From assembly GCA_963662715.1 (NCBI GenBank), contig OY759724.1, positions 2,522,662-2,586,661 of the forward strand: 64,000 nucleotides of DNA, in the 5' to 3' direction. The position numbers and the translations under genes were made by a program. Positions 3,162 to 57,144 of this stretch are shown here, one piece after another. The notes beneath the pieces were generated by a model that saw only the letters and a program-made list of their open reading frames with translations, did no database searches and had not been told where the DNA came from. The DNA is from Candidatus Omnitrophota bacterium (GTDB lineage: Bacteria > Omnitrophota > Gorgyraeia > Zapsychrales > JANLHA01). Numbering within the stretch: position 1 is the first letter of the stretch; every line of letters begins with the position of its first letter.

Positions 3162-3173
3162 GAGAGGATAATA

Positions 3174-3770
3174 ATGACGAACTTTATTATTAGAGGCGGT
3201 TTTTTTATCTGGCCGATTCTTTTGTGCTCGGTCGTTTCCTTGGCGGTTATCCTGGAAAGGTTGAAGTATTTTCACCGGACGGGCGCTCGTAATAAAAATT
3301 TACCGGAGCGGGTGCAGGTATTGATCAACAGCAAGAGGCCTGATGAATCATATAAACTTTGCAAGCAGGATGAAAGCTTTGTCGGACGTTTTCTGGCGGT
3401 CGGGATCAAGGTCATGGATCAGCCGGTAGAGGAAAGGGGGAAGATACTCCGCAGGGCCGGATCCCGGGAGCTCGAAGAAGGCGAAAAACATTTGCGGATA
3501 CTTTCGGTGATAGGCAACATCGCGACCTTATTGGGGCTTTTGGGAACTGTGACCGGTATGATTCAGACTTTTATTAAGATCGAGGCCGCAGGCGGGACAA
3601 CGGAAGTGGCTTTGCTCGCGGGGGGGATATGGGAGGCGCTTCTTACGACAGCGGCAGGTTTAAGCGTAGCTATCCCGACCCTGGTCATGTACCATTACTT
3701 TGAAGGGATCGTTGACAGTCGGGCGGTTCAGTATAAGAACCTGGCCGCGGATATCTTTAATCTGCATTAA
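3174..3770 (+). CDS. exbB: ExbB/TolQ/MotA-family proton channel
   Basis: About 200 aa with 3 TM segments. Conserved GLLGTVTGMIQTF and ALLTTAAGL motifs. Located between the receptor and exbD/tonB. Confidence 0.85.
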   Translation: MTNFIIRGGFFIWPILLCSVVSLAVILERLKYFHRTGARNKNLPERVQVLINSKRPDESYKLCKQDESFVGRFLAVGIKVMDQPVEERGKILRRAGSRELEEGEKHLRILSVIGNIATLLGLLGTVTGMIQTFIKIEAAGGTTEVALLAGGIWEALLTTAAGLSVAIPTLVMYHYFEGIVDSRAVQYKNLAADIFNLH

Positions 3771-3784
3771 TAGCGGAGGTTAAT

Positions 3785-4210
3785 TTGAGTTCATTCGAGC
3801 TTGAAAGACGAAGAAAGGCGGACACGGTTTTAAATATCGCTCCTCTGATCGATATTGTCTTTTTGCTTTTGATATTTTTTGTGCTTTCGGCTCATTTTGT
3901 TTCACAGAAAGGCTTTAAGGTGAAATTGCCCAAGGCGGTCAGCGCCCAGACGCAAAAGAACGAACAGGTGACGGTTTTTATCAATAAAGAGGGCGGTATT
4001 TTCGTGAATGGCTTGGGAATCGAGCCCGTTCAACTTAAAAATTTCCTCCGTTCGGAATTGAACAAAGCAAACGCTAAAACGGTGGTCATTAAGGCTGATG
4101 AGGATGTCTCCCTGGGTTTAATCGTCCAGGTGATGGATATCGCTAAGGAGGCAAACGCGGACGGCCTTGTGATATCTACTAAAACAGCAAACGATGAAAA
4201 AAATAAATGA
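3785..4210 (+). CDS. exbD: ExbD/TolR biopolymer transport protein (TTG start)
   Basis: 141 aa with a single N-terminal TM (PLIDIVFLLLIFF) and a periplasmic domain; operon context. Confidence 0.85.
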   Translation: MSSFELERRRKADTVLNIAPLIDIVFLLLIFFVLSAHFVSQKGFKVKLPKAVSAQTQKNEQVTVFINKEGGIFVNGLGIEPVQLKNFLRSELNKANAKTVVIKADEDVSLGLIVQVMDIAKEANADGLVISTKTANDEKNK

Positions 4211-4772
4211 GCTGCATTCGAGCCTTTTGATTTCTTTTATTGTTCATGCGGGAATAGTCGGTTCCGGTTTATTGCCCTTTCATCCCGTCCTGAAAGACAA
4301 GCCTTTTGACGTTGCCTTTGAAGTCGAAGAAGAGGTGTTGCCGGAAGTTTTTGAGGTCAGGGAAGAAAAGAGAGTGGAGCCGCCGGTCATTGAGCGGGAA
4401 GAGCTGCTTGAACCGGTGCCGGATGAAATAAAAGCCGAGGGCCTAAAACCCGCGCAAGAGGATGAAGAGCACAAGAAATCACTTCTGCGGTATCAAGACA
4501 GCATAAAGCAGAGAATTCAAAAGGAAAAACAGTATCCGCGCTGGGCCCTCAGGGCCAGACATCAGGGGGTCGTCAGAATAGTTTTTGATGTGTTGCCTGC
4601 AGGGCTGGTCAAAAATTTAAGTCTTTTGCAGTCATCCGGATTTAAGGAATTGGATGAAGAGGCTCTGGATGCGGTTAAAAGAGCAAGCCCCTTTGATCCT
4701 TTCCCTGAGGTTTTTAGTGAGGATGAAATTCAGGTTGAAGTAGCTATTATTTTTACATTTAGAGAAAAATAG
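4194..4772 (+). CDS. tonB: Energy transducer TonB
   Basis: N-terminal TM, Pro/Glu-rich spacer, C-terminal TonB_C-like domain (QYPRWALRARHQGVVRIVFDV…). Confidence 0.75.
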   Translation: MKKINELHSSLLISFIVHAGIVGSGLLPFHPVLKDKPFDVAFEVEEEVLPEVFEVREEKRVEPPVIEREELLEPVPDEIKAEGLKPAQEDEEHKKSLLRYQDSIKQRIQKEKQYPRWALRARHQGVVRIVFDVLPAGLVKNLSLLQSSGFKELDEEALDAVKRASPFDPFPEVFSEDEIQVEVAIIFTFREK

Positions 4773-4836: not shown

Positions 4837-7800
4837 TTAGCAGGGGCCACAATCATAAGCACAGCTCATACAGTCTTCACCATACTCTGTCTCACAAACG
4901 GAATTGCCGCAGTAAGGACTCGGACAATCATGCTGACAGGTTTGGTGTATTTCCGCTACTTCGCATATGGGAACGCCATATGTCGGATCCGGAACATTAC
5001 ACGTCTCCGTACAATCCGGGCGGCAGGTGTATCCGTCTTCGTAGATCGGGTTCATAGGGTCGTCATTCCACTCGCAGGTGCCGTTGCCGCAGTACGGGCT
5101 CGGGCAATCGTGCTGGCAGGATTCAAACCCTTCGGTTTCCTCGCAGATCGGGACACCTAGCTCCGGATCGGGAACGTTGCAGGTCACGGCGCAGTCCGGG
5201 CGGCAGGTGTATCCGTCTTCGTAGATCGGGTTCATAGGGTCGTCATTCCACTCGCAGGTGCCGTTGCCGCAGTACGGGCTCGGGCAGTCATGCTGGCAGG
5301 ATTCAAACCCTTCGGTTACCTCGCAGATCGGAACGCCCAATTCTGGATCAGGAACGTTGCAGGTCACGGCGCAGTCCGGGCGGCAGGTGTATCCGTCTTC
5401 ATAGATGGGGTTCATAGGGTCGTCATTCCACTCGCAGGTGCCGTTGCCGCAGTACGGGCTCGGGCAATCGTGCTGGCAGGATTCAAACCCTTCGGTTTCC
5501 TCGCAGATCGGGACACCTAGCTCCGGATCGGGAACGTTGCAGGTCACGGCGCAGTCCGGGCGGCAGGTGTATCCGTCTTCGTAGATCGGGTTCATAGGAT
5601 CGTCATTCCACTCGCAGATGCCGTTGCCGCAGTACGGGCTCGGGCAATCATGCTGGCAGGATTCAAACCCTTCGGTTTCCTCACAGATCGGGACACCTAA
5701 CTCCGGATCAGGAACGTTGCAGGTCACGGCGCAGTCCGGGCGGCAGGTGTATCCGTCTTCATAGATCGGGTTCATAGGGTCGTCATTCCACTCGCAGGTG
5801 CCGTTGCCGCAGTACGGGCTCGGGCAATCGTGCTGGCAGGATTCAAACCCTTCGGTCACCTCGCAGATCGGAACGCCCAATTCCGGATCAGGAACGTTGC
5901 AGGTCACGGCGCAGTCCGGGCGGCAGGTGTATCCGTCTTCATAGATCGGGTTCATAGGGTCGTCATTCCACTCGCAGGTGCCGTTGCCGCAGTACGGGCT
6001 CGGGCAATCGTGCTGGCAGGATTCAAACCCTTCGGTCACCTCGCAGATCGGAACGCCTAACTCCGGATCAGGAACGTTGCAGGTCACGGCGCAGTCCGGG
6101 CGGCAGGTGTAACCGTCCTCGTAGATCGGGTTCATAGGATCGTCATTCCACTCGCAGGTGCCGTTGCCGCAGTACGGGCTCGGGCAATCGTGCTGGCAGG
6201 ATTCAAACCCTTCGGTCACCTCGCAGATCGGAACGCCTAACTCCGGATCAGGAACGTTGCAGGTCTCGGCACAGTCCGGCAGACATGTATAAGCGTCCTC
6301 ATAGATCGGATCCATGGGATCGTCGTTCCACTCGCAAACACCGTTACCGCAAGTCGGAATGGGACAATCCTGGGGGCAAATATCATAACCCTCGTCTGCT
6401 TGGCAAATACCGTCCCCGCAATTTGCTGAAGTGCCGGAATCAGCCAGAAAACCAATATCAACCTGCCCGTACATCCTGGAGATGCTGTTGGCTGTCGGAT
6501 ATCCGTTCCCATACCGGTAACACGTTGATTGAATCGAGATGTTGTCATACGTCTGCGGGAAATAATCGATACCGTATCTATAAGAAGCCCCGCTGCCGGC
6601 CATGTAAGCCGCAACAGTGTACGTCTCTCCCTGGGTTACGGGCACAGGGGTGGGGAGGTCGACAAAACTCCATTCATTACTGGCGGTAACCGCCGCGCTG
6701 GCCAGTAAATTCTGTGATGAATCCCAAAGATACACGGTTTTTGTGCCGTTGAAGAAGCCGCCCAACTGGGTTATTTCCCCGTCGACTTCCGGGACGAAAC
6801 GATACCCCATGGTATAATTCCACCTGATATTTGTCCTTAAGGTTCCGTTTTCGTTGGTTTGCCAGGGCGTCTCCGGAATAACCTGCAGGCCGGAAATCGT
6901 CATTTCAGGATCGCCCAAAAGATTCAGTTCAAGAATCGCGTACTTCATGTATTCATTGCTGACGGTCTGTCCGATGAACGGAACTTTTGACATGGCCAGG
7001 GTCTGACCGATGCGGTTTATTTCGTCAACAACGATAGTTTCAAAAAAGGAAGGATCCAGGTAGGTGTCGGATTCCGGGTGCCAGCCATAGCGGCTGTTTC
7101 CGGCTAAAGCAACAGCGCCGCCATCAGGGTTGTTTAACCAGTGTTCGGCAATTGTGTCCGTGTCAATGGCCGCAAAATAGCAGCCCACTGACCATAAGAC
7201 GGAGTAGTCCGGGGCATTGCTGAAACTGTCCACATCTTGAGTTGTGATGTAATCACTGCCGGTATACATGCGGTCAATATCGGCATGATCAATGTGATTG
7301 ATAATGTGATGTCCGGAATTGATTTCCGTTATGGCCTGAGCACTGTAAGCATAAAGGTCTCTTTCGTAAAGTTTCGTGATCGGATCAAATTGCTGCGGCA
7401 TATACTGCGCGTCAATGTAGTCTTTGGTTTGGCCGCCGGCATCCTGAAAGTCTTCGCATCCCAGGAACAGGGCCGTGTTATAAAAGTCGGGATTTTGTCC
7501 CTGAATATAGGTCAGGATTTTACTGACAAAAACCTGGGCTTCCTGCTGATCCTCTACCGGAGCCCGTCCGACAAAAACATCCGGATACAGGTCCAGATTG
7601 TCTTCGTATTCTCCGAAAATGCTGTCCTGATCAGCGTCCCAATCACCGTCTAAATCAGAATAGTACATGTCCGTGGGGATGTAAGAAGATGCGACATAAG
7701 CCGGCCGGACAGGGACAATGTTGACATCTCCGCCCAGCAACACCCAGACAAGACCGTTGTTCGTATAGAGGTCGATGATGAAGTTCCGAATCTTCTCGGC

Positions 7801-8724
7801 TGTGTCACGGCCGGATACGTTTTGCTCTATCCATTCCACAGACTCAATTTCAGCCGTGAGTCCCTGATTTGTTTTTTCATCCAGTAACGGCTGAAAAACC
7901 TGGCTGGTAATAAGGGCTTGACTGGTGATAATGATGTAGTCAACAGTCCCTGAATAGCTACCGGCCAGCAGGATTTCGCCGCTGAGCTCTGCTTCTACGG
8001 CTGAGCGGGAATCCTGCAGAGTCGTATCGACCGCCTCGCTGTTGGTGAACACTTTTTTAAAGGCGTCTTTTAACGCTTTGTCTGATTTGTCGGATATTGT
8101 TTTTCTTTTCCGGTGTTTTATGTCTTTGCTTGATGAGGCGGCGGTGTTTTTGCCGGTTCGCTCTTCTGAACTTAACTTGAATTTAATTTTCTTATGCAGA
8201 ATCAGTTCTTTTTGAGCGGGCAAATATTGTATGGGGTAGACATGGACCGTAACAATATTCACGTCGCTTAAGTTCCCGGATTTTACCTTCTTGATCATTT
8301 CAGCCGGGTAAAGTTCTTGTGATGCATAGGCGTCCTTGTCCGGATTGGTAAAAGAATATTGGCTCCCGTAATGCTGGGATTCCTGCGCCGGATAAAGCAA
8401 AAACTCTCCTTCCAATTTTTCAGTAACATCTTCTAGGATCTCGATGCCTGTCACTTCGATATCATTGGCAACAGCGAACTGGTAAACTTTATACGGGACC
8501 TGCGGTTTCCCCGCCTCTCTCGTTGAAGCATGCCAGTTCGTTTTAATGATATCGTAGCCTTCTTCTGCCGTGATGTTCAGATCACTCTGGGAGAATTCTA
8601 TCTCGTGAATGATATCTTCACTTTGGGCCGCTAATACTGAAATTCGCGCTGAAGAAAACAGTATAGAAAATAACAGCATTTGCATCAGCAGTCCCAGGTG
8701 TTTCTTGCGTCTATACTTATTCAT
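4837..8724 (-). CDS. Secreted gingipain-like cysteine peptidase (MEROPS C25 fold). Its C-terminus is an array of 8 full plus 1 truncated 60-aa Cys-rich modules with 8 Cys each.
   Basis: Signal peptide (…ISVLAAQ). The catalytic region matches gingipain/C25 in two places: INHIDHADIDRMYTGSDY (His) and SVLWSVGCYFAAID…GGAVALAGNSRYGW (Cys). The C-terminal 527 aa are repeats of CPSPYCGNGTCEWNDDPMNPIYEDGYTCRPDCAVTCNVPDPELGVPICEVTEGFESCQHD. Confidence 0.8.
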   Translation of the reverse strand: MNKYRRKKHLGLLMQMLLFSILFSSARISVLAAQSEDIIHEIEFSQSDLNITAEEGYDIIKTNWHASTREAGKPQVPYKVYQFAVANDIEVTGIEILEDVTEKLEGEFLLYPAQESQHYGSQYSFTNPDKDAYASQELYPAEMIKKVKSGNLSDVNIVTVHVYPIQYLPAQKELILHKKIKFKLSSEERTGKNTAASSSKDIKHRKRKTISDKSDKALKDAFKKVFTNSEAVDTTLQDSRSAVEAELSGEILLAGSYSGTVDYIIITSQALITSQVFQPLLDEKTNQGLTAEIESVEWIEQNVSGRDTAEKIRNFIIDLYTNNGLVWVLLGGDVNIVPVRPAYVASSYIPTDMYYSDLDGDWDADQDSIFGEYEDNLDLYPDVFVGRAPVEDQQEAQVFVSKILTYIQGQNPDFYNTALFLGCEDFQDAGGQTKDYIDAQYMPQQFDPITKLYERDLYAYSAQAITEINSGHHIINHIDHADIDRMYTGSDYITTQDVDSFSNAPDYSVLWSVGCYFAAIDTDTIAEHWLNNPDGGAVALAGNSRYGWHPESDTYLDPSFFETIVVDEINRIGQTLAMSKVPFIGQTVSNEYMKYAILELNLLGDPEMTISGLQVIPETPWQTNENGTLRTNIRWNYTMGYRFVPEVDGEITQLGGFFNGTKTVYLWDSSQNLLASAAVTASNEWSFVDLPTPVPVTQGETYTVAAYMAGSGASYRYGIDYFPQTYDNISIQSTCYRYGNGYPTANSISRMYGQVDIGFLADSGTSANCGDGICQADEGYDICPQDCPIPTCGNGVCEWNDDPMDPIYEDAYTCLPDCAETCNVPDPELGVPICEVTEGFESCQHDCPSPYCGNGTCEWNDDPMNPIYEDGYTCRPDCAVTCNVPDPELGVPICEVTEGFESCQHDCPSPYCGNGTCEWNDDPMNPIYEDGYTCRPDCAVTCNVPDPELGVPICEVTEGFESCQHDCPSPYCGNGTCEWNDDPMNPIYEDGYTCRPDCAVTCNVPDPELGVPICEETEGFESCQHDCPSPYCGNGICEWNDDPMNPIYEDGYTCRPDCAVTCNVPDPELGVPICEETEGFESCQHDCPSPYCGNGTCEWNDDPMNPIYEDGYTCRPDCAVTCNVPDPELGVPICEVTEGFESCQHDCPSPYCGNGTCEWNDDPMNPIYEDGYTCRPDCAVTCNVPDPELGVPICEETEGFESCQHDCPSPYCGNGTCEWNDDPMNPIYEDGYTCRPDCTETCNVPDPTYGVPICEVAEIHQTCQHDCPSPYCGNSVCETEYGEDCMSCAYDCGPC
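4930..6290. repeat. Near-identical 180-bp coding tandem repeat, about 7.5 copies, inside the C25 peptidase gene
   Basis: Visible directly. For example the blocks starting near 5041, 5221, 5401, 5581, 5761, 5941 and 6121 differ by only a few nucleotides. Confidence 0.9.
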
Positions 8725-11663: not shown

Positions 11664-12323
11664 ATGAAAAGAGTTGTTTTCTTAAGTGTTTTATTTGTTA
11701 TTTTTACCTGTAGCAACGCCATGGCTTCCGTGATTACTTTTGATGATGTCATCATGGGAGAAACCACGTATAGCTTCGACTCTGATGGAGACAGTATTTA
11801 TGATGTGATTTTTTCAACTTCAGATCCATATGGGTTTAATACGGTCGGGCCGGGAACAAATATGTCGTATATCCTTGAACCTGGATTAGAAGGTTCGACA
11901 GAATACGATCTTAGAGTCGATTTTCTTAACCAAGCGCAAGGTTATCTTAATTTCGGTTTTGCCCTCGATGATTTTTCCGAAACCTCCAACACTTGGACTG
12001 AATTTTGGGTATACGATAACGTTGGCAACCTCTTAGCGCATGATTTTGAATACGGACTATATACGACACCAGATGGTTCTAATCCGAGTGATTTCCCCGA
12101 GGGATTAATCGAGACCAGCTTTTCAGGTATCGCAAGCTATGCGCTTTTTGATTTTAATAATGACGTTTCTGGTGGACAAAGGTATATTATCGATAATTTT
12201 GAAGGTGTTTTCGGGTCAACAGAAGTTCCTCCCGCTAACCCAGTCCCTGAACCTGCAACAATGTTTTTATTGGGATCAGGTTTATTAGGACTTGCAAGAA
12301 AGAGGAAAAAGTCATTACTTTAA
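11664..12323 (+). CDS. PEP-CTERM sorting-domain secreted protein (exosortase substrate)
   Basis: Signal peptide, then at the C-terminus VPEP + hydrophobic helix (ATMFLLGSGLLGLA) + RKRKK, the canonical PEP-CTERM tripartite signal. Confidence 0.8.
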   Translation: MKRVVFLSVLFVIFTCSNAMASVITFDDVIMGETTYSFDSDGDSIYDVIFSTSDPYGFNTVGPGTNMSYILEPGLEGSTEYDLRVDFLNQAQGYLNFGFALDDFSETSNTWTEFWVYDNVGNLLAHDFEYGLYTTPDGSNPSDFPEGLIETSFSGIASYALFDFNNDVSGGQRYIIDNFEGVFGSTEVPPANPVPEPATMFLLGSGLLGLARKRKKSLL

Positions 12324-12596: not shown

Positions 12597-14489
12597 TTAG
12601 AGAAGGCCTCGGGGGGGAGAAGATTCTAGCACAAATTCGCCAACGGATTTTTTTAATTCTTCAGATAAGTTAGCTAGTTTACTAGCTGAGTCCATAAATT
12701 GTTGTGTGGAAGACAAAAACTGCTGAGTAACACCAGAAATATTCAATATACAATCCACTGTTTCATTTGAAGCAACCCGCTGTTCTTGAATAATACGCGA
12801 AATTTCTTGCGCAGCATTGCTTGTTTCCTGTACTAACTTTAAAACTTGTGCCACTTGTTTAACAGAATCGCTCATATCCCTGACAGCCAACCGTGTTTCT
12901 TCCTGAATCTCATCAATTATTGCCCTTATTTCATTTATAGAAGAGGAAGACTTAGAGGCAAGCTTTTTTACTTCTCTGGCAACAATGCTGAATCCTCTCC
13001 CGAACTCCCCGGCTCGAGCTGCTTCAATGCTGGCATTTAGAGCTAAAAGGTTTGTTTGTTCAACAACATTATCAATCAATTCAGTTATTCCTCCAATATG
13101 TGTTAACTTTTTTTCTAAATTAGCAATATGCGTGTCAGTTTGAACAACCTTTTGATTCACCTCCTGCATGCTGAAAAATGTACGTTCAGCAATTTTGGCA
13201 ACGCCTTCTGAATTCTCGGCAATATGTGAAGAAGTATTTGCCAATTCTTCAACAATTGAAGAAGCTTGGTGTACCGTGGCGGCCTGGGCTTCGGCGTCTG
13301 CAGCTTGTTTGCTCGCCCCGCTGTTAATTTTGGAAGCGAATTGATTGATTTCGAACCCGGCATTCTGAATATGTAATATTACTTCTCTCAAGGTTTCAAT
13401 AACCTTATTATAAGCAATCGCAAGTTCGCCAATTTCATCGCGGCTATTTACACGAACTGCCTTTGTTAAATCTTTTGCCCCGATATTTTTCATCCCCTCT
13501 TTCAATTTTTCTACAGGATTTGTAATTGAAACCGATATAAAAAAACTGAAAACAATCGCGACAATAACGCTGATAATCCCAACGGCCACAATAACATCTC
13601 TTAATTTAAAAGTCTCCCTCAATAATTCATGATCAGGAATAGTTATTGCCGCGGACCAGTTTAAACGCTGATAAGGAGAATAAAATATATGTTTTAACAC
13701 GCCTTCAAATTCATAGTCGCCCTGCCCGTGCTCCATGTTTATCATATGATTGACTACTTCGGTTAACTTTTTGTCCGGCGTCCTAAGTATATTGCGATGT
13801 AAGATATTCTCTTTGTTGGGGTGAGCAATGATTATCCCGTCCTTGTTCACCAAATATCCATATCCTGTCTCCCCAGCTTTCATTTCATCAATGAACGAAG
13901 TTATTGCTTCCCCTTTTATATCTAATGCAATAACGCCAATCTTTTCCCCTTCTTTAGAATTTACCAATTTTGACATCGTTAATACAGCTGAGTTTGTGTT
14001 TTGATCAAGATATATGTCCGAGACATATACTTTTTTTCTGCCTGTATTTAATGCACCACGAAACCATTCGGCTTTGGATTCATCTTTGTTGATATTTTTT
14101 GAATCATTTGAAGTCGTTAAGAGTTGGTTGCCTTCAAGGGATAGCAATCGGATTCGTGATAAGTATGGCCGTTTGTTTATATAGTCTTGATACTCATCAA
14201 CGACATCGGAAAGACGATTACGCATGTAGTCATTTAAGTAAAATGCCATCTGTGTAATAGGTTTCTCCGATAATTCTTCAGTATCGCGCACACAAACTTC
14301 TAAAAAAGCGTCCATTTGCTTTACAGATTTTCCAACAATACTACTTAATGACTGGGAAAGCTGAGAAACGAGTGCTTCTGAAGCGCTGGAGTAAGAAAAA
14401 TATCCCAAAGCACACAGCGGAAGAGCAATAAGAATTAAATAGGAAAGGAATAGTTTCAATTGCATCCGTGTCTTTTTTAGGAAAAACAT
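12597..14489 (-). CDS. Methyl-accepting chemotaxis protein with periplasmic Cache-type sensor, HAMP and MA signalling domain
   Basis: Two TM helices flank a roughly 270-aa periplasmic region. The C-terminal MCP signature [31 protein letters not shown] is present. Confidence 0.9.
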
Positions 14490-28760: not shown

Positions 28761-29249
28761 ATGAAGGTATCCAGATTGACGGCAGCAATCATGGTATTGC
28801 TGCTTACCTGCGGTGCGGGGGTTGCCCAGAGTAAAGCCCCGGAAAGTGAAAAAAAGGATCAGGTTTATGCCGAAGTTGTGGTTCAAGGCGTCAACCTGGG
28901 AGACTTTCTGCTTGTCCAGATGCCTTCCGCGGAAACGGAAATCATCGAATATCAGGACGGAGACGATTCACTCTTAAGAAAAAGGCCGGGACGGACCCGT
29001 TACAGTAATCTTATCATCAAAAGATCTATTTCCGATGATAACAGAATCATAGAGTGGTATGATGGTGTCAAGGCCGGTATGGTAGAGAGAAGAACAATCA
29101 CTCTTATTGTAAAAGATGCTCGCGGTCAGGTTGTCGATACACATACCCTGCTGAATGCTTGGCCGGCAGCATGGCAGGGCGGGGTTTTTGAAACAGCTGA
29201 ATTCGTTCTTGAAGATATGGAGAGAGTTGTAGAAGAAGAGGAAGAATAG
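28761..29249 (+). CDS. Afp1/T4 gp19-like contractile-tail tube-family protein with an N-terminal Sec-type signal peptide (orphan)
   Basis: Core YAEVVVQGVNLGDFLLVQMPSAETEIIEYQDG…RPGRTRYSNLIIKRSI…IIEWYDGV…RRTITLIVKDARGQVVDTHTLLNAWPAAWQG…AEFVLEDM aligns motif-by-motif with Afp1/PVC1-type tube proteins. N-terminus MKVSRLTAAIMVLLLTCGAGVAQS is a typical signal peptide. Confidence 0.7.
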   Translation: MKVSRLTAAIMVLLLTCGAGVAQSKAPESEKKDQVYAEVVVQGVNLGDFLLVQMPSAETEIIEYQDGDDSLLRKRPGRTRYSNLIIKRSISDDNRIIEWYDGVKAGMVERRTITLIVKDARGQVVDTHTLLNAWPAAWQGGVFETAEFVLEDMERVVEEEEE

Positions 29250-36306: not shown

Positions 36307-39300
36307 ATGAAAATGTTAAGAAGAAAATATGTGTTATGGCTCTGGACCTTTTTCGTCTTAGCCGGGGTTTGTTCCTCCGTTCATGGCGGGAACAAAAGAC
36401 AGCAGACCTTGGCGGTCCTGGGGATCACTGCGGAACCTGATATCCATCAGTCTGATAATCTGGTGTCTCTCCTTGAGGCCGGGTTGAGCGGGACGGATGA
36501 TTTGACCCTTGTGGAAAGGCGCGAGATTGATCTTGTGATTAAGGAACTGCAGCTTTCCATGGGGGATTTCTTAAGATCGGACCAGAAAATGCAGGCCGGC
36601 AGAATGCTTGGGGCTGATCTGATCGGGTATGGATTCCTGACCCGGCAGAAAACCAGAATCCGTGTCAGGTTTCGTATCGTAGAGGTGGAGACCGGGCGTG
36701 TTGTCGGAAGTTTTCTGCTGGCGGAAAAAGATCCCGAAACAATGTCTCATAAACTTTTAAGCGGTATGATAAAGTCCATAAAGACCGGCCCGGTTAAAAA
36801 TCTCCCCACTTTTACGATAGCCTCTTTTATGAATGACAGTAATTACGACAGGTTTGATGATTTTGAAAAAATCCTGTTTGACAAAGCCTTTGACTTTGTC
36901 GCCGGAACAGGAAATTTTGTATTGCTGGAGAGAGAATCAACGGGGTATTTGCTGGATGAAATTGATATGTTTAAGTCCGGTATCGTCGCTGAAGACCACG
37001 GGGCCAGGCCGGGCCGGGCTTTAAAAGCCGATTATGTGCTTAAAGGTTCTTTTGCCGAAGACCAAAGCACTCGGCAAAACGGACAATGGCTTATGAATGT
37101 TACGGTTGAATTGTGGGACTGCCGACACAGAAGAAGAGTCTGGTCTGAAATTTTTCAGTCGCCCTCTGATAGGCTCGAGCAGGAATTCACGGCCTTTTTA
37201 GAAAAAAACATGTCCCGTGTCCCGCGCGCAATATCCTTCCCTTTTAACCTGCAGCAAAAAGCTGAAAGCAGGGAATATTTAAGGAAAGGCCTGACCAATC
37301 TGTATGTCGGATCGCGGTTGCAGCAGGGGGGCATGTATGATGCTTTGAATATAGAGGATTATTTGATGAAAAGTCATTTTTCCGGAGTGAAAATGGATGT
37401 CCTGGACCGGGATGATCCCCGGGCCTACAGACGCGCCCGGGCCGGGATTAACGACCTTGAGAATGCGCTCTTTTTGGATCCGGACAATACCGTTGCAAAA
37501 CTCTACCTTGGAATGGCTTTGTGTGACTTGTACCGCGGAGATTTAAATCATAAAAGTATAGGGGTTCATGGACGACGGAGGCGTATTCTGACGATGTTGC
37601 GGGGTGCGGAGATGATCGGAAATGTCTTTCCCGCGGATAAGAAGACTTTTTCTACGGCTCTTTTTGAAGCTGTTTCCATTCTTGATTTCAGCCGGCCTCA
37701 TTCCAATCCCGAGATCACCGCAGAGTATGAGGATGCGCTCTATCGACTGGTCAGGCTGGCCTTTGATAATCTCGAGGCGTTTTCCGGGGAAGCGCAAAGA
37801 TTATTGAAAGACCGTTATGAAATCATTCTGACAAGGGGATCACAGCAAGAGCTCATACATTTTACCCGTAAACGCCTCGCAGATATCCATAAAGACAAAG
37901 CGTTCGCCCGCCGTCATCCGGAAACGGCTTTTTATGTTTTTCAGAAGATCGCCGCCATGTGGAGAGAGGAATACCGCATGGACCCGGCCTGCGAAGTCGC
38001 CGGATTCTTTGAGGAGCAGTATGAGTCCGAGAATCCGGTCTATGCCCAGCTTGCGTATTTCTGGACCGCAAAATCATATCAGCGCATGAAAGATTATACG
38101 AAGGCGCGTGATTTTTACCGGAAAGCCCAGGACATATTTTATGCCCGTTTTGCCCAAGAGCCGTTAGAGACTTTTGAGAGTTCTTCGTGGGGAGTTTTGG
38201 AGGAGAGTTTTTTTCAGGAAGCCTACATGCACCTTGAAAACAAAGAATATCAGAAGGCTATCGATGTCCTGGCCCCGTTTATCGAGGGGTGTTTTGAAAG
38301 GAATAGATATCAGGTTTTTGCTTATGATAATGCTTTAAAGCTGCTGGGCAGGGCTTATGAAGAGGAGGGGCTGATCGCCCAAGCCATTGAGTATTATCAG
38401 AAGGTCCTCGATGCCGAATATCCGAAAAATGTCTATGTTGATAAAGCGGCCATATCCTCAAGAATCAATAAACTGAAATTTGCCAGGGGGGACAAGACGG
38501 AAAATGCCGGCTTTGCCCTGTACAAGCTGGCTGATGTCAAAAACGCCAGGGAGATTGTCCGGCAAGGCTCCCAAATCTGGATTTTGAAAATGTCGGCGCT
38601 CTTCCCGGCAGCGGCCTATTCCAGCAGCAGTACGCATAGGGGAACTTACGAAGTATGGCAAGACGGGCCGGGGGGCTGGGTTAAAGCCGATGCCCCGTTA
38701 CTGACAGATTCCCAAAAGATCAGCGTCCTGTTTTTGCATGGGAATAATCTTTGGGTCGGGACTTACGGGGACGGTTTGTTCCGGCAGGACCTGGTGACGA
38801 AAAGAGTCGATTCCTTTACGACCGCATCGGGGTTGCTTTCAGATTATATCGTTTGTCTGGCAAGTTCGGCTCAAGAGCTTTTCATCGGCCTTTCGTCAAA
38901 CAAAATGAACAGTGATCGGGGAGGCGTGTTGCGGTATCATTATGGGAAAAGAATATTCAGTCCTTTCCCGGGGTTGAATTCCCGGGGGGTAAGGACATCC
39001 ATGCCCATGGCCCTGCATTATGATGAGAAGCGGGATGCTCTTTGGGTCGGCTATCCCCGCTGGGAAAAGGCGATCCTGCACAGATATTCCCTGGCGAAAA
39101 AGCAATGGGACGCCTTTATGAGTAAGGCTTACGGGAAGTTTATCTTTCAGATATTGCCTTATCATGACGATTTATTATTCGGCATGGGCGATGAACTGGC
39201 AAGATATAATCTGCCGGAGGATGGCTGGGCCGATATCCGGGGGGGGAGAATCGACGGGTTTAAGAAATATAATATTTTTGAGACCCAGACCTCGCTTTTT

Positions 39301-39507
39301 TATGAAGTTTATGAGAATGTCCTTTTGACCGTAGCCGGGGGAAAAGGATCTCAGTTGCAAATATACAACCTTGAAACAGGAGAAATGAGGACAATGGATA
39401 TTCTCTTCGGGAGGCAGGACACGCACATTACGGCCATTCAGACTGTGGGACAGGAACTGCTGATCGGTACGGATATGGCGGTCTACAAATTAACGATAAG
39501 TGAGTGA
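36307..39507 (+). CDS. Large secreted multidomain protein: N-terminal CsgG/LpoB-like domain, central TPR-like helical repeats, C-terminal beta-propeller-like region
   Basis: Signal peptide. The N-terminal region LAVLGI…LVERREIDLVIKELQLSMGDFL…AGRMLGADLIGYGFL follows the CsgG/LpoB-family pattern. YY…KA…G helical-repeat stretch between roughly 37300 and 38400. WVGT/GDG-type blades at the C-terminus. Confidence 0.5.
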   Translation: MKMLRRKYVLWLWTFFVLAGVCSSVHGGNKRQQTLAVLGITAEPDIHQSDNLVSLLEAGLSGTDDLTLVERREIDLVIKELQLSMGDFLRSDQKMQAGRMLGADLIGYGFLTRQKTRIRVRFRIVEVETGRVVGSFLLAEKDPETMSHKLLSGMIKSIKTGPVKNLPTFTIASFMNDSNYDRFDDFEKILFDKAFDFVAGTGNFVLLERESTGYLLDEIDMFKSGIVAEDHGARPGRALKADYVLKGSFAEDQSTRQNGQWLMNVTVELWDCRHRRRVWSEIFQSPSDRLEQEFTAFLEKNMSRVPRAISFPFNLQQKAESREYLRKGLTNLYVGSRLQQGGMYDALNIEDYLMKSHFSGVKMDVLDRDDPRAYRRARAGINDLENALFLDPDNTVAKLYLGMALCDLYRGDLNHKSIGVHGRRRRILTMLRGAEMIGNVFPADKKTFSTALFEAVSILDFSRPHSNPEITAEYEDALYRLVRLAFDNLEAFSGEAQRLLKDRYEIILTRGSQQELIHFTRKRLADIHKDKAFARRHPETAFYVFQKIAAMWREEYRMDPACEVAGFFEEQYESENPVYAQLAYFWTAKSYQRMKDYTKARDFYRKAQDIFYARFAQEPLETFESSSWGVLEESFFQEAYMHLENKEYQKAIDVLAPFIEGCFERNRYQVFAYDNALKLLGRAYEEEGLIAQAIEYYQKVLDAEYPKNVYVDKAAISSRINKLKFARGDKTENAGFALYKLADVKNAREIVRQGSQIWILKMSALFPAAAYSSSSTHRGTYEVWQDGPGGWVKADAPLLTDSQKISVLFLHGNNLWVGTYGDGLFRQDLVTKRVDSFTTASGLLSDYIVCLASSAQELFIGLSSNKMNSDRGGVLRYHYGKRIFSPFPGLNSRGVRTSMPMALHYDEKRDALWVGYPRWEKAILHRYSLAKKQWDAFMSKAYGKFIFQILPYHDDLLFGMGDELARYNLPEDGWADIRGGRIDGFKKYNIFETQTSLFYEVYENVLLTVAGGKGSQLQIYNLETGEMRTMDILFGRQDTHITAIQTVGQELLIGTDMAVYKLTISE

Positions 39508-52609: not shown

Positions 52610-52801
52610 ACCGTTGGTCCCCGGGGATATTTTTCCCTGAAAAAAGATAAAGGAAGGGAAGCCCCGTATTTTGTTTAAATTGCGGCTTTTTTTCCTTTTT
52701 TTTATGATTTTCCGTATTAGTATTGATAGATATCATATCTATGCTATACTTAGAAAGTAGTAATCCTGTCTCCACCCTAAAAATTAATACCTATTTTCAG
52801 C

Positions 52802-55800
52802 TTGTTATATAGAGCAAAGGAGTGTGTTTTGTCTTTGGGAAGAATACTCTGTTCCAGAATTTTTAGTTATGTATTAACGATAATAATCACTTTCACCTTT
52901 GTTTTTTACCCTCTGACACCTTCCCGTTATGTTTTTGCCCGGGAAGCGGCCATCCTCGGTTTGCCTGTTCCAGGAACACAGCTCCGGACGTCTGAAAGCT
53001 ATGAGCCGGCTCTTGTCAAAGGCATAACGATATATCCCGACAAGCCTCTGCAATTTAATTTTATTGTTCATCCGGGGGATGACCGGTTGAAGGGTGAGGC
53101 CCTGCAGCAGGAATCTTTAAAGATGATTAAATATTTCCTGGCTACCCTGACTATCCCGAAAGACGAGATGTGGGTCAATTTGTCCCCTTATGAGAAGGAC
53201 CGCATTATTCCTGAAAATCTCGGTATAACGGAAATAGGCCGGGACATGCTGGCGCAGGATTATCTTCTTAAGCAGTTAACCGCTTCCTTAATATATCCGG
53301 AAGAGTCCCTGGGCCGCCGTTTCTGGGACCGCGTCTATAACAAAGTGTATAAGGAATTCGGATTAAAAGAGGTCCCGATCAACACCTTTAATAAAGTCTG
53401 GATCGTCCCGGATAAAGCCGTTGTTTACGAACATGACAATACCGCGTTTGTCATTGACCAGCATTTGAAAGTCATGCTGGAGGAAGATTATCTTGCCTTG
53501 CAGGAAAGCCGGGGTTCGGATGTTTTCCGCAAAAAGAAGATGGATGAAAAAGAGATTTCGGGCATCAACCACGTCTCCTCGGAAATTCTGCGCACCATTA
53601 TTATCCCTGAGATAGAAAAGGAAGTTAACTCAGGCAGAACGTTTGCCGACTTAAGGCAGATCTATAACGCCATGATTCTGGGTATATGGTACAAACAGAC
53701 ACTCAAGAATAGTTTGTTGGCGTCTGTTTATGCCGACCAAAATAAAATTGTCGGCGTGGATGTTGATGATAAGGAGATCAAAGAAAAGATTTACAGACTT
53801 TACATTGAAGCGTACGGGAAAGGGGTCTTCAATTATATCCGTGAAGATACTGATCCCCAGACGCAGGATGTCATCCCGAGAAAATATTTCTCCGGGGGAC
53901 TGGTGGCCCCGGCCCAGGTTACGGTCAAGAACGATTTCGCTCAATTGAATACTGCCGAAAGGCGGAATGTCCGCACGATCGTCAGTTCCCCGATCCAGCA
54001 TCAGGGGATTATTGTCAAAACTTTGGAGCTGAGCCGTCCGGATGCTGAGGCCCGGATTTTAGACATGCTGCGGCAGGCTCTGTTAAAAGATGAGGGGAGA
54101 ACGTTCAGCGTTCTTCAGGACGTGGCCGATTTATTATCCCGGGACGACATGAGGACGATCCCTGATATTCGTGCGGCCCTGGAGCCCTTCAGGGGACGGT
54201 ATTTTTATGACCTGGCCTACGGATATCAGAAAGACAGCCTTGTGCTGGAGCGGGGGGCGGAACTCTGGCTGGTCGTTGATGCGGCCAAGAGAGAAGGGGA
54301 CCGGCTTTACCGGTACATCAAGGCCCGGGACAGTGTTAAGGAAGAAGGCGACAAAGATATCCGTGAGATCATGGATTTCCCGGAGAGTCACTGGCAGATC
54401 GTGCGGGTCCGCAAGGGCGACCTGGAACAGGACAAGCTTATTGATCTGCAGTTGATCGAAGACCATGATTTCCGTGTTATTGACCTGGTGGAAGAAGGGC
54501 GGGATTTAAGAGAAGATGATATCGGGCAGGGTATCGAAGGAGCCAGAGACAGGATTATCGGGGAACTGGATTATCAGGATTATTTGCAGTCGTTTGTGTC
54601 GAGATTGCAGGGAAAAACGATAATGGACGAGAGCGGCCGGACCATCCCGTTATTTGTGAATGAAAAAATCCGGACCGGGGAAGATTTATTAACGGCTTTT
54701 GAACAGGCCCGTCCTTTTCTCGATCAGTTCGATGAGAGCGACCCTATGGAGGATGTGTATGCGCGTTTGCGGGATGTAGGCCTGGAACGCGGCTGGGGAG
54801 ACACGCTGTCCGAAATGAAGACGAGGCTGGATTTGCTGCTGGAATCCGCCGGGGCTGCAGATTCCGTGAGCAGAAAAAGCCTTTTAATGGAACTGGATGA
54901 CCTGACCCCCACAGCGTTATCAGCCGTCTTTGTGAGTACCCATGGATGGTTTGTCCAGGAAAATGCTTTCGGGAAACCCGATACGGGCGGTCAGGTGAGT
55001 TTTGTGCGGGACGAAGCCAAAGCCATGGCTAAAGAGATCGCCGGTAAGATGGAAAGAGCCGGGATTCCCGGTAAAGCTGTCGCCCTGATATTCACGCGCC
55101 TGATTCCCAAAGCCGAGGACACGACCGCCGATCTTCCGGAGGAGTCGGTCTACGAGGATGACCGTCAGGTCGTTAAACTGGTCCGGGTGCCTTTTGAGGA
55201 TCAGGAGCGGTCCGGGGAGGTCAGGGGCCGTCCGCAACCTAAAAATATTCTGGAAGTCATTCAGGCTTTTATCCGGCGGTTTGAAATATGGTCGTATATT
55301 ACTCAGGAAGAATTTATTAATACGGCCGGAGCCAGGATAACAGAGGTGATGAACAGGTACGGGCAGGAGGGGCCGGATATTATTATGGGGAATTATTCCG
55401 ACGGGAACCTGCTGGCGGGCAAATTGTCGGACTATTATGGCGGGAACGTCCCGGTTGTCATGACAGCCCATGCCCTGGAATTGAGCAAATATTTTAAAAG
55501 CATGCTGGAAAACGGCCGCCTGATCGATAACTGGTTTGAGACGGAAGACGGCCGTTATTTGGCGGCCCAGGCTTTGATCGATGCCTGGGTGATGCGTAAG
55601 GCCGATATTATCGAGACGAGCACGTTGCTGGAAATACTCGGCCAGTATTCCTATTATGAATCATTTGAATTTGAAAATCTTTTCCGGGTGGATAACGGGA
55701 TTAAACTTACGGACGGAAAGTTTGTCCTGAATGAACCCAGCGTTGACCAGCGGACAGTAACAAACCCGGACGGGCTGTTCTTCGCCTATGAAGGGCCTGA

Positions 55801-57025
55801 TGATGTCCGCCGGCAGGAGTTTGCCGATGCCAATGCTCTCTGGCAGGCCAAGATTTTTGCTGCTCCTGATGGCAAAAATAAAGTCTACGACCGGTTCGCT
55901 GACTGGAAAGATTCATCCAAACCGGTTGTTTTCACGATGGCGCGTTTTGATTCCCGGAAAAATATTGCGGGCCTGGTTGAGGAGTTCGCTAAAGCGGGCC
56001 TTAAAGACAGGGCCAATCTGGTGATCGTCGGCGGCAACACGGATTATATTATCGACGGAGACGGCAAGGTCGTCTTTAAAAGCCAGGACGGGTCTGACGA
56101 CATGAACGCCGAGGAACTCGCTATCGCGGAAAAGATTCTTGCCTTAGTGGAGCAATACGGTTTAGACGGACACATCCGCTGGATTTCGGCCAGTACTATT
56201 GCCCGTGAATCGGCTGAATTGTACCGGGTTATGGAAGCCCATCCCCAGGGGGCGATTTTCGCCCAGCCGGCTATTTTTGAGGCTTTTGGTTTAACAATTC
56301 TGGAAGCTATGGTCACAAAACTTATGGTTGTGGCTACGGATCAGGGAGGCCCGGCAGAGATCATCCGCCATCACCAGGACGGTTTTCTGGCCAATCCTGA
56401 AATCCCGGGAGAGTTCGGGGAACGGTTGGGGGAAGCTTTGGATGCCCTGGCCAACGCTGAACAGAAACAGGCGATTATCCATTCTGCCCTGGAACGGATC
56501 GCCAGTAAATACAGCTGGCGCAGGCGGGTGCAGAGAACCTTGCAGGCGACGAAATTGTTTTCCACGCTTAATGATGTTGACCGGAATCAGCGTCCGGACC
56601 ACTGGCAGGCCCGGAAACAATCCCAGGAGAAGGTTTACCGGGATATCCTGGATATGATTGACAATCTGGTGTGGGTTCATAAACTGGACCTTATTCCGCC
56701 GGAAGCACAGCCGGAAATGGAAAACCTGATCGGTGAGCAATTCAGAACGGGGGCGGAAGCCGTTTCAAGCCCGCTGGCTCAGGACGCCGAGACAGATGCC
56801 GGGTCTTATTACGGCGGTATCGATTTGAATTCAGATATGCTGGACCTGCAGATCAAACGTGACGGCCGGGGCGTGGCCCTGCCGCTTCCTCAGCAGCCGA
56901 TTCAGAATATGACAATCCAGGGATTCATGCCGATCATCATTGATGTTGTCCCGGTGAATGTTCCCTTGTTGTTAGGGACCTTGGAAAGCTCCTCTGATAA
57001 TATGCCGTCCGATGACGAAACATAG
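52802..57025 (+). CDS. 1407-aa sucrose-synthase-like glycosyltransferase (GT4, GT-B fold) with a roughly 400-aa N-terminal membrane-anchored extension of unknown function and a roughly 100-aa C-terminal tail
   Basis: Central and C-terminal regions match sucrose-synthase hallmarks in order. (a) GLERGWGDT…RLDLLLE (SuS [10 protein letters not shown]…LLDLLEAP). (b) [34 protein letters not shown] (SuS [33 protein letters not shown]). (c) [22 protein letters not shown]…ANLVIVGG (SuS [22 protein letters not shown]…). (d) [36 protein letters not shown] (SuS [36 protein letters not shown]). The N-terminus carries a hydrophobic helix ([19 protein letters not shown]). Confidence 0.75.
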   Translation: [1407 protein letters not shown]

Positions 57026-57112
57026 TCTTTAGGTCTGCCCGAGAAATTGAGCATTCCTGTCGTGCTGGACGGGAATGCGGCATTTTTATGGCGGAGACAG
57101 GACATTTCAAAA

Positions 57113-57144
57113 AGAGATCAACCATAAGGTTGATCTCTTTTTTG
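57113..57144 (+). terminator. Rho-independent terminator, agagatcaacc-ataa-ggttgatctct plus T6
   Basis: Perfect 11-bp stem plus T tract after the sucrose-synthase-like gene. Confidence 0.65.

Follow-up and report, generated by a model that had tools for sequence, protein, structure and literature searches.

A sucrose-synthase-like enzyme of an Omnitrophota bacterium is carried between two modules shared by a large family of cysteine-depleted proteins

The window studied here, a stretch of 64,000 nucleotides from a Candidatus Omnitrophota bacterium (assembly GCA_963662715.1, contig OY759724.1, positions 2,522,662 to 2,586,661 of the forward strand), encodes an oversized protein whose core resembles sucrose synthase (SuS). 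A first-pass annotation, made from the letters of the sequence alone, had presented it as a membrane-anchored SuS that could feed an envelope polysaccharide synthase. The enzyme turned out to be one of many: as far as sequence comparison can tell, the leader and N-terminal module (N-module) in front of it and the C-terminal module (C-module) behind it form a bracket that a whole protein family shares, around very diverse cargo.

The gene is an uninterrupted open reading frame (ORF) on the + strand, 52802-57025, which starts with TTG and spans 1407 amino acids (aa), far more than canonical SuS, as the annotation had said. Translation probably starts at a second TTG, 52829, rather than at the longest-ORF start TTG 52802, giving a product of 1398 aa, because a well-spaced Shine-Dalgarno sequence AAGGAG (52817-52822; with the start codon, 52817..52831, +) was read six bases ahead of it and because the database protein P0001 (1398 aa, 100% identical to this product) has the same start. 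Upstream, a consensus scan returned a promoter-like site, TTGATA-16-TATACT with an extended TG (52723..52750, +, 10/12 matches), which as a mere consensus match says nothing on function. Two tandem terminator-like hairpins, each with a T-run, follow the gene (57051..57144, +). The one at 57051-57078 came from a terminator scan; the other, at 57113-57144, an AT-rich stem followed by a T-run, was recognised by eye and is the one already named as the gene's own terminator. The annotation was also right about the neighbours: a MATE exporter lies upstream, and downstream comes a metal ABC operon of the ZnuABC type. Within the 64 kb window, no gene for the sucrose-pathway partners sucrose-phosphate synthase (SPS), sucrose-phosphate phosphatase (SPP) or fructokinase was found, nor any polysaccharide synthase gene, and tblastn with the N and C parts of the protein matched the gene itself only, with no paralogue.

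The same architecture, in full-length orthologues of 1396-1412 aa, recurs in at least four independent assemblies (P0002, P0003, P0333 and P0336). P0002 and P0003 are 68% and 57% identical to the gene product, and some of the long forms are labelled 'sucrose synthase' by JGI. A frameshift joining an upstream gene to the enzyme, or a fusion made by assembly, was therefore rejected.

The SuS-like cargo occupies aa 572-1266 (54515..56599, +), as delimited by domain matches and by alignment to the sequences of known structures, and consists of an EPBD (~572-700), a GT-B N half (702-984) and a GT-B C half (1036-1214). Pfam models matched at aa 613-667, which is the end of the EPBD (SUS_EPBD, PF24862, E 1.4e-9), at aa 702-984 (GT-B_Sucrose_synth, PF00862, E 6.1e-45) and at aa 1036-1214 (Glycos_transf_1, PF00534, E 2.7e-20). 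With hhalign, SuS homology moved back to aa ~572, equivalent to SuS position ~148 (probability 98%), so that the whole EPBD is covered. The GT-B region thus went to SuS-specific models and not to a generic GT4 family, and the four SuS-type motifs of the annotation are all present, in the correct order: GLERGWGDT at aa 660-668, a 19-residue motif at aa 714-732, a 17-residue motif at aa 1045-1061 and a 36-residue motif at aa 1153-1188. A further motif position, aa 889-893, is listed among the catalytic or nucleoside diphosphate (NDP)-glucose-binding motifs.

The NCBIfam model for SuS, TIGR02470, gave 387.3 bits over aa 608-1266 (profile positions 164-761 of 784), short of its equivalog cut-off of 810.4 bits. 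SPS was not the best match, its models TIGR02472 (138 bits) and TIGR02468 (118 bits) scoring far under the SuS model and under their own cut-offs. AtSUS1 (3S27, E 4.5e-79) and the Nitrosomonas europaea SuS (4RBN, E 3.8e-74) aligned over aa ~601-1260. In the phmmer alignment to 3s27_A, the equivalents of AtSUS1 H287, G302/G303, H438, R580, K585, E675 and E683, which we take to be the catalytic and NDP-glucose-binding residues of 3S27, are all identical. The closest stand-alone relatives are ordinary SuS of ~800 aa from cyanobacteria, proteobacteria and plants (31-35% identity); the SuS-like subfamily itself was seen only inside the bracket, in three protein clusters, and its GT-B blocks are 80-97% conserved among SuS-cargo orthologues. 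By these comparisons, the core is a divergent SuS-type GT4 enzyme with an EPBD, both GT-B halves and intact catalytic residues. Its chemistry would most likely be sucrose + NDP <-> NDP-glucose + fructose.

The SuS N-terminal targeting/regulatory domain (PF24861), which most canonical SuS matches do carry, had no Pfam match in the protein, and hhalign of aa 400-700 against SuS residues 1-300 aligned nothing before SuS position 148. Of the SuS-type regulatory region that had been proposed, the EPBD half is therefore present, and the targeting domain was detected by neither method. Because of this missing domain and of the score under the curated cut-off, we call the core SuS-like, not SuS. It follows SuS (EC 2.4.1.13, GT4) in that the EPBD, the PF00862 domain and the GT-B C half are collinear with AtSUS1 ~150-776 and share the signature motifs and the catalytic set. 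It differs from SuS, besides its low identity, its score and the absence of PF24861, by having no Cys at all in aa 572-1266, and by its position between a Sec leader with N-module on one side and a C-module on the other. The part unrelated to SuS is longer than the ~400 aa of the annotation, about 570 aa, and what follows the GT-B domain is about 140 aa, including the C-module, instead of ~100. Taken alone, the enzyme is of modest novelty, a divergent bacterial SuS without targeting domain.

Just ahead of the cargo lies an orphan region, aa 413-571 (54038..54514, +), which is conserved among SuS-cargo orthologues only (ortholog conservation 0.4-0.78) and gave neither a Pfam match nor an hhalign match to the SuS N-terminal domain. 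That aa 412-571 might be a diverged SuS targeting domain was rejected on the hhalign result. A homologue search with aa 405-575 was empty, a weak negative, as the same tool also failed to re-list P0001-P0003 in later searches.

The first homology search with the whole protein was dominated not by SuS but by 117 non-orthologous proteins, which match aa ~20-375 (44-63% identity) and aa ~1325-1395, and nothing between. Their N-termini are 50-63% identical to the N-module. A profile of this module retrieved 8,260 cluster representatives at E<=1e-3, and 6,602 at E<=1e-30, among 1.84 billion, the family clusters being defined at 50% identity. The module was present in single copy, right behind the leader, in 150/150 listed matches, starting at aa 2-104, mostly 30-45; the listed proteins span 420-5312 aa, and the window protein, as P0001, scores 569 bits. 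Nearly all sources that have a name belong to Omnitrophota. A search of GTDB genomes confirmed over 584 loci, and a genome has several of them. Their record titles are mostly Omnitrophota, with many automatic 'uncultured Planctomycetales' and one Candidatus Elulimicrobium.

Precomputed Pfam annotations revealed the range of the cargo, about half of which had no Pfam domain. Glycolysis-type cargo includes PGI, PGK, FBA with GAPDH, hexokinase, PfkB and PPDK, as well as isocitrate lyase with malate synthase; sugar-nucleotide and glucan cargo includes PGM, UDP-glucose pyrophosphorylase and a GT5 glucan synthase. Signalling or binding domains (REC, GGDEF, PP2C, HTH, HEAT repeats) are also found, together with radical SAM enzymes, metallophosphoesterases and one GH26. 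A membrane anchor private to SuS was rejected, since the N-module is common to unrelated cargo.

The bracket opens with a Sec-type leader, aa 10-46 (52829..52939, +), in which a heuristic analysis recognised a basic n-region, a 19-residue hydrophobic core and an AxA-like site, V-F-A|R. The AlphaFold2 (AF2) model of the N-terminus has a helix at 4-35. The heuristic was applied to 187 family leaders and is not a SignalP or DeepTMHMM prediction. It found a net-positive n-region in 181/187 (mean 3.75 K+R) and an AxA-like site with a hydrophobic core in 187/187, xAQ, most often YAQ, being the commonest site. The typical order is hydrophobic core, usually a Pro, then the AxA-like site, which in the window protein reads VFA|RE. 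A possible Tat-like RR pattern was seen in only 8/211 leaders. By this heuristic, the family leaders are consistent with a cleavable Sec signal, and the description 'membrane-anchored' becomes doubtful.

The N-module follows at aa ~50-366 (LGLPVPG ... RKYFSGG), with a conserved helix/strand extension to aa ~412 (IIVKTLELS; 52949..54037, +). Family-wide it is ~320-360 aa long, starts with LNLPxPG and has a near-invariant end of nine residues. Its AF2 model (pLDDT 82, pTM 0.79) shows an alpha/beta fold that includes a long beta-hairpin. In about 13% of full-length members (for instance P0331, P0313, P0008 and P0051), one transmembrane (TM)-like segment follows 30-250 aa past the N-module (aa ~385-600).

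The C-module, common to the 117 non-orthologous matches, covers aa 1338-1392 (55 residues; 56813..56977, +). Its pattern is GGIDLN...PVIINV.PV..LLLG, and the window protein has GGIDLN and, near the C-terminus, the 20 residues that close this pattern. The family version, of 56 residues, is followed by a variable acidic tail; its columns GGI, Q, R, D, G, P and G are almost invariant, and its second half is hydrophobic. In the window protein, a short acidic/polar tail and the stop codon come last (56978..57025, +), in line with tails that vary across the family. Many members (P0010, P0017, P0031, P0098, P0100) end in hydrophobic-S-x-L-N, such as ..ISWLN, ..VSYLN, ..ISALN or ..VSSLN; the window protein ends in ..PSDDET, without this motif.

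Short motifs mark both junctions between modules and cargo. SSPI is found at aa 395-398 (53984..53995, +) and SSPL at aa 1322-1325 (56765..56776, +). SSP[IVLAM] is 17-fold enriched in the family, where it clusters 10-40 aa past the N-module and 0-30 aa ahead of the C-module. A second motif, D.AM[LMT], recurs with it close to the modules, behind the N-module and ahead of the C-module. Both may be linkers, processing sites or modification sites. A GG is also invariant at the two junctions, in the YFSGG that ends the N-module (53894-53899) and in the GGIDLN that starts the C-module (56813-56818). Given that C39 double-glycine peptidase domains were reported, in a preprint, in giant Omnitrophota proteins, cleavage after the junction GG is conceivable by analogy, as pure speculation.

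The most extreme property of the family is its lack of Cys. Over the mature parts of 210 members, 138 of 309,516 residues are Cys (0.045%), and 137 of these members lack it altogether. The only two Cys of the window protein, aa 8 and aa 17, belong to its leader, and the remaining ~1360 residues have 0 where ~13-19 were expected (P ~1e-6 to 1e-8). For comparison, Cys makes up 1.39% of the window's other ORFs, 0.93% of canonical SuS, and 5.95% of the exported C25 peptidase of the same window. This last protein, gingipain-like, is encoded at 4837-8724 (-) and has 1295 aa, 77 Cys, a propeptide, the C25 domain and a DUF4082. The Cys that survive in the family can be catalytic. Outside its leader, the GAPDH cargo P0036 has only two, both in the active-site SCASCTTN, and the radical-SAM cargo P0075 retains CxxxCxxC. 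Because such Cys are kept, together with GG[DE]EF in the GGDEF cargos and the catalytic residues in the SuS-like one, the cargo appears to have been kept active while non-essential Cys were removed. A low Cys content is characteristic of substrates that pass the outer membrane in unfolded form, among them autotransporter and TPS passengers or type I secretion system (T1SS) substrates.

Relatives of the two modules were searched for among known families and folds. No Pfam (2025) or NCBIfam (2026) model matched either module at E<=1, and the N-module profile gave nothing against all PDB sequences. Foldseek with the N-module AF2 model returned no significant match in PDB (best E 0.08, NheA, TM-score ~0.1) or in BFVD (best E 0.023, TM-score 0.28), and nothing with the full-length P0100 model. 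A toxin fold of the ClyA/NheA type, suggested by these weak matches, is not relied on. The literature, with motif strings included among the queries, yielded no description of the N- or C-module, several of the searches being poorly targeted. For a bracket around Cys-free, cytoplasmic-type cargo we thus found no described counterpart, and we infer its function below from sequence features.

The nearest likeness in the same phylum is with the giant proteins of Omnitrophota, described as 'Archaeovorins' or 'multi-enzyme metabolic clusters', of 10,000-147,000 aa and many with numerous TM helices (West-Roberts et al. 2023, bioRxiv 10.1101/2023.11.21.568195; Nielsen & Lui 2026, bioRxiv 10.64898/2026.06.07.730766). 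They also combine a signal peptide or TM segments with GT5 starch synthase, GT1, PGM, REC, radical SAM, HEAT, PPDK and GGDEF domains, and both preprints remark on the implausible extracellular placement of metabolic domains. The bracketed proteins differ from them in size, 0.6-5 thousand aa, and in having one N-module and one C-module. Neither module, nor Cys depletion, is mentioned in the two preprints. The Archaeovorin type has >30,000 aa, many TM helices, and SecA-like or C39 domains; the window protein has one hydrophobic leader and no SecA-like or C39 domain, and the overlap lies only in the domain repertoire of the wider family.

Other systems with a similar logic were compared with the bracket by sequence. 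MARTX toxins also enclose interchangeable cargo between conserved ends, and release it by cleavage of inter-domain linkers after delivery; they use a T1SS, without Sec leader, and possess glycine-rich A/B/C repeats, a CPD protease and toxin cargo. The window protein has no sequence or fold similarity to them and no matches to the repeats, the CPD or the T1SS, and it has a Sec-type leader instead. TpsA/CdiA proteins and autotransporters follow a Sec leader by a conserved secretion domain and a variable passenger, Cys-poor, which crosses the outer membrane unfolded. No TPS beta-helix domain, beta-barrel or FHA repeat was matched in the window protein (Pfam/NCBIfam, E<=1); the N-module is alpha/beta without a fold match, and in the bracket family the variable part is internal and then followed by a conserved C-module. 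The C-terminal domain (CTD) of type IX secretion system substrates, PEP-CTERM and LPXTG are short conserved C-terminal elements on many otherwise unrelated exported proteins. Here aa 1267-1407 had no Pfam or NCBIfam match and no TM helix with basic tail, and the C-module differs from such signals in being always paired with an N-module. The likeness to MARTX, CdiA/TpsA, autotransporters and CTD-sorted cargo is thus, at the level of sequence, one of logic only, and membership was found in none of them. A genuine, small PEP-CTERM protein is encoded in the window at 11664-12323 (+), which makes an exosortase system probable in the organism as well, one distinct from the C-module.

On balance we think it rather likely that the window protein is a Sec-exported, Cys-purged carrier of an active SuS-like cargo, with several candidate destinations outside the cytoplasm. 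The leader and the Cys purge argue that the proteins leave the cytoplasm. Export would go through Sec, and the leader would probably be cleaved after VFA (aa 46). The absence of Cys would keep the proteins competent for translocation, or suit them to an oxidising environment outside the cytoplasm. That paralogues conserve the modules so strongly speaks for a partner common to them all, and a machinery for sorting, anchoring or translocation that serves the whole family may recognise the N- and C-modules. The cofactors that the cargo needs, such as NDP for SuS, point in turn to a destination with nucleotides, and the periplasm or envelope, the cell surface, and a partner or prey cell are candidates. 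There the SuS-like cargo might carry out sucrose + NDP <-> NDP-glucose + fructose, or a close variant, alongside co-targeted members with hexokinase, PGM, UDP-glucose pyrophosphorylase and GT5 glucan synthase. The SSP[IVL] and D.AM motifs and the junction GG may serve as linkers, or be processed to set the cargo free.

Several observations weigh against such export. The cofactors on which many cargos depend are cytoplasmic: UDP or ADP for SuS, and for others ATP, NAD, GTP, or S-adenosylmethionine (SAM) plus an Fe-S cluster, which a radical-SAM enzyme exported through Sec should not obtain. DNA-binding HTH or REC domains are also among the cargos. The assignment of the leader rests on heuristics, and the TM-like segment of ~13% of the members would separate the cargo from the N-module by a membrane. 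The AF2 model of the 821-aa P0100 has a pLDDT of 58 overall (~80 for part of the C-module) and is poor outside the N-module. Finally, no dedicated machinery gene adjoins the family genes in 79 loci, where ORFs were clustered from 3 kb flanks, mostly on the upstream side: nothing recurs there except the family itself and antisense ORFs. In two of the 79 loci (L017 and L050), two family genes lie close together; elsewhere family genes are scattered.

The conflict between a Sec leader with Cys purge and an intact, cofactor-dependent cargo (HTH, REC, GGDEF, radical SAM) would be resolved if the modules translocated the cargo into the cytoplasm of a host or prey cell, where nucleotides, SAM and DNA are present, the junction motifs, which flank the cargo on both sides, then being cleavage sites for its release. 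With the SuS-like cargo, UDP-glucose and fructose of the host might be diverted to sucrose, or the reverse, to the benefit of the Omnitrophota cell. The design resembles that of MARTX and CdiA. Omnitrophota do include ultrasmall, host-dependent or predatory cells (PMC10066038), and their giant proteins with similar domains are predicted to be extracellular and were linked to predation (bioRxiv 10.1101/2023.11.21.568195; 10.64898/2026.06.07.730766). However, no homology to a known translocation domain was found (Pfam, NCBIfam, Foldseek, PDB profile), enzymes of central metabolism are unusual effectors, and there was no sign of cleavage or of a target cell. Moreover, a contig of at least 3.36 Mb that includes genes for chemotaxis, TonB and ABC uptake gives the organism of the window a free-living appearance. 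We consider this delivery unlikely, though it comes second in our ranking. The model of the first-pass annotation, a SuS tethered at the cytoplasmic face and feeding a polysaccharide synthase, ranks third and seems to us improbable. It can invoke the hydrophobic N-terminal helix, the hydrophobic second half of the C-module, the cytoplasmic nature of the NDP that SuS needs, and the presence in other members of UDP-glucose pyrophosphorylase, PGM and GT5 glucan synthase, which would fit a membrane glucan metabolon. The SuS-family GT4 core with its catalytic set stands; the SuS-specific tether does not, and the placement at the cytoplasmic face probably does not. The positive-inside rule places the bulk of the protein outside, all 187 leaders have an AxA-like cleavage site, and the supposed tether, leader plus module, is generic to over 8,000 clusters with unrelated cargos, HEAT, REC and HTH included. 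A 20-30-fold Cys depletion has no rationale in a cytoplasmic enzyme. NDP-glucose channelling at that face is therefore probably not what happens, the charge distribution and near-absent Cys fitting export. No polysaccharide synthase or sucrose-pathway gene lies in the window, and the SuS targeting domain (CTD) is missing.

Two readings remain at the bottom of the ranking. The modules could be a cytoplasmic scaffold, self-assembling or docking the enzymes into a metabolon, filament, shell or condensate, with the leader as a helix for assembly or membrane association. This agrees with a cargo in which cytoplasmic types predominate overwhelmingly and make up coherent pathways (glycolysis; glucose 6-phosphate -> glucose 1-phosphate -> UDP-glucose -> glucan or sucrose), and modules 50-63% conserved across paralogues and species are what a shared binding partner would require. 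It is very improbable, since the leader resembles a classical signal peptide, the Cys purge is left unexplained, and no similarity to bacterial microcompartment, encapsulin or cytoskeletal folds was found. Last comes an artefact, a mis-assembly or frameshift fusion with an ordinary SuS, or a decayed pseudo-enzyme, for which the only points are the 387 bits against 810 at the NCBI SuS equivalog cut-off and the ~33% identity to SuS. The recurrence of the architecture in independent assemblies, the continuous frame with its own Shine-Dalgarno sequence, promoter-like site and terminators, and the intact catalytic residues in well conserved GT-B blocks make it hardly credible.

The exported carrier thus stays our first choice, and the bracket matters more than the enzyme. 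It unites an export leader, two modules that match nothing in Pfam, NCBIfam or PDB sequences, an extreme Cys purge and cargo expected in the cytoplasm. More than 8,000 clusters have it, and genomes carry several copies, in a phylum that is mostly uncultured and little understood. Its small, tractable members would allow testing of the same paradox that the two preprints met in the giant proteins. If export is true, a new sorting or delivery system could be at work and metabolic reconstructions of Omnitrophota might have to be reread, because 'glycolysis gene present' may refer to an exported copy. If export fails, a Cys-free, doubly capped design still wants an explanation. We also entertain, as a tentative extension that is clearly less secure than export of the window protein, that the N- and C-modules mark an unrecognised export or delivery pathway present across the sampled Omnitrophota genomes, by which hundreds to thousands of Cys-purged, catalytically intact enzymes (of glycolysis, sugar-nucleotide and glucan or sucrose metabolism, c-di-GMP signalling and the radical SAM type) would act outside the cytoplasm. 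In its most radical version, held together with that pathway and just as tentatively, they would be delivered into the cytoplasm of a host or prey, or into an extracytoplasmic compartment containing nucleotides, and the SuS cargo would make or cleave sucrose there. Delivery of this kind, if true, would amount to outsourced or host-redirecting metabolism.

Some other genes of the window deserve mention. An isolated T4 gp19-like tail-tube gene lies at 28761-29249 (+); no sheath or baseplate gene was seen among the nearby ORFs of at least 150 aa that were scanned. A 1066-aa protein (36307-39507, +) gave weak CsgG-like and TPR matches and is possibly an envelope or secretion component. The window also contains a cluster with a TonB-dependent receptor plug, ExbB and TonB (1089-4772, +), a methyl-accepting chemoreceptor (MCP, 12597-14489) and several ABC uptake systems. 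Together with the size of the contig, these genes suggest a diderm organism of free-living appearance.

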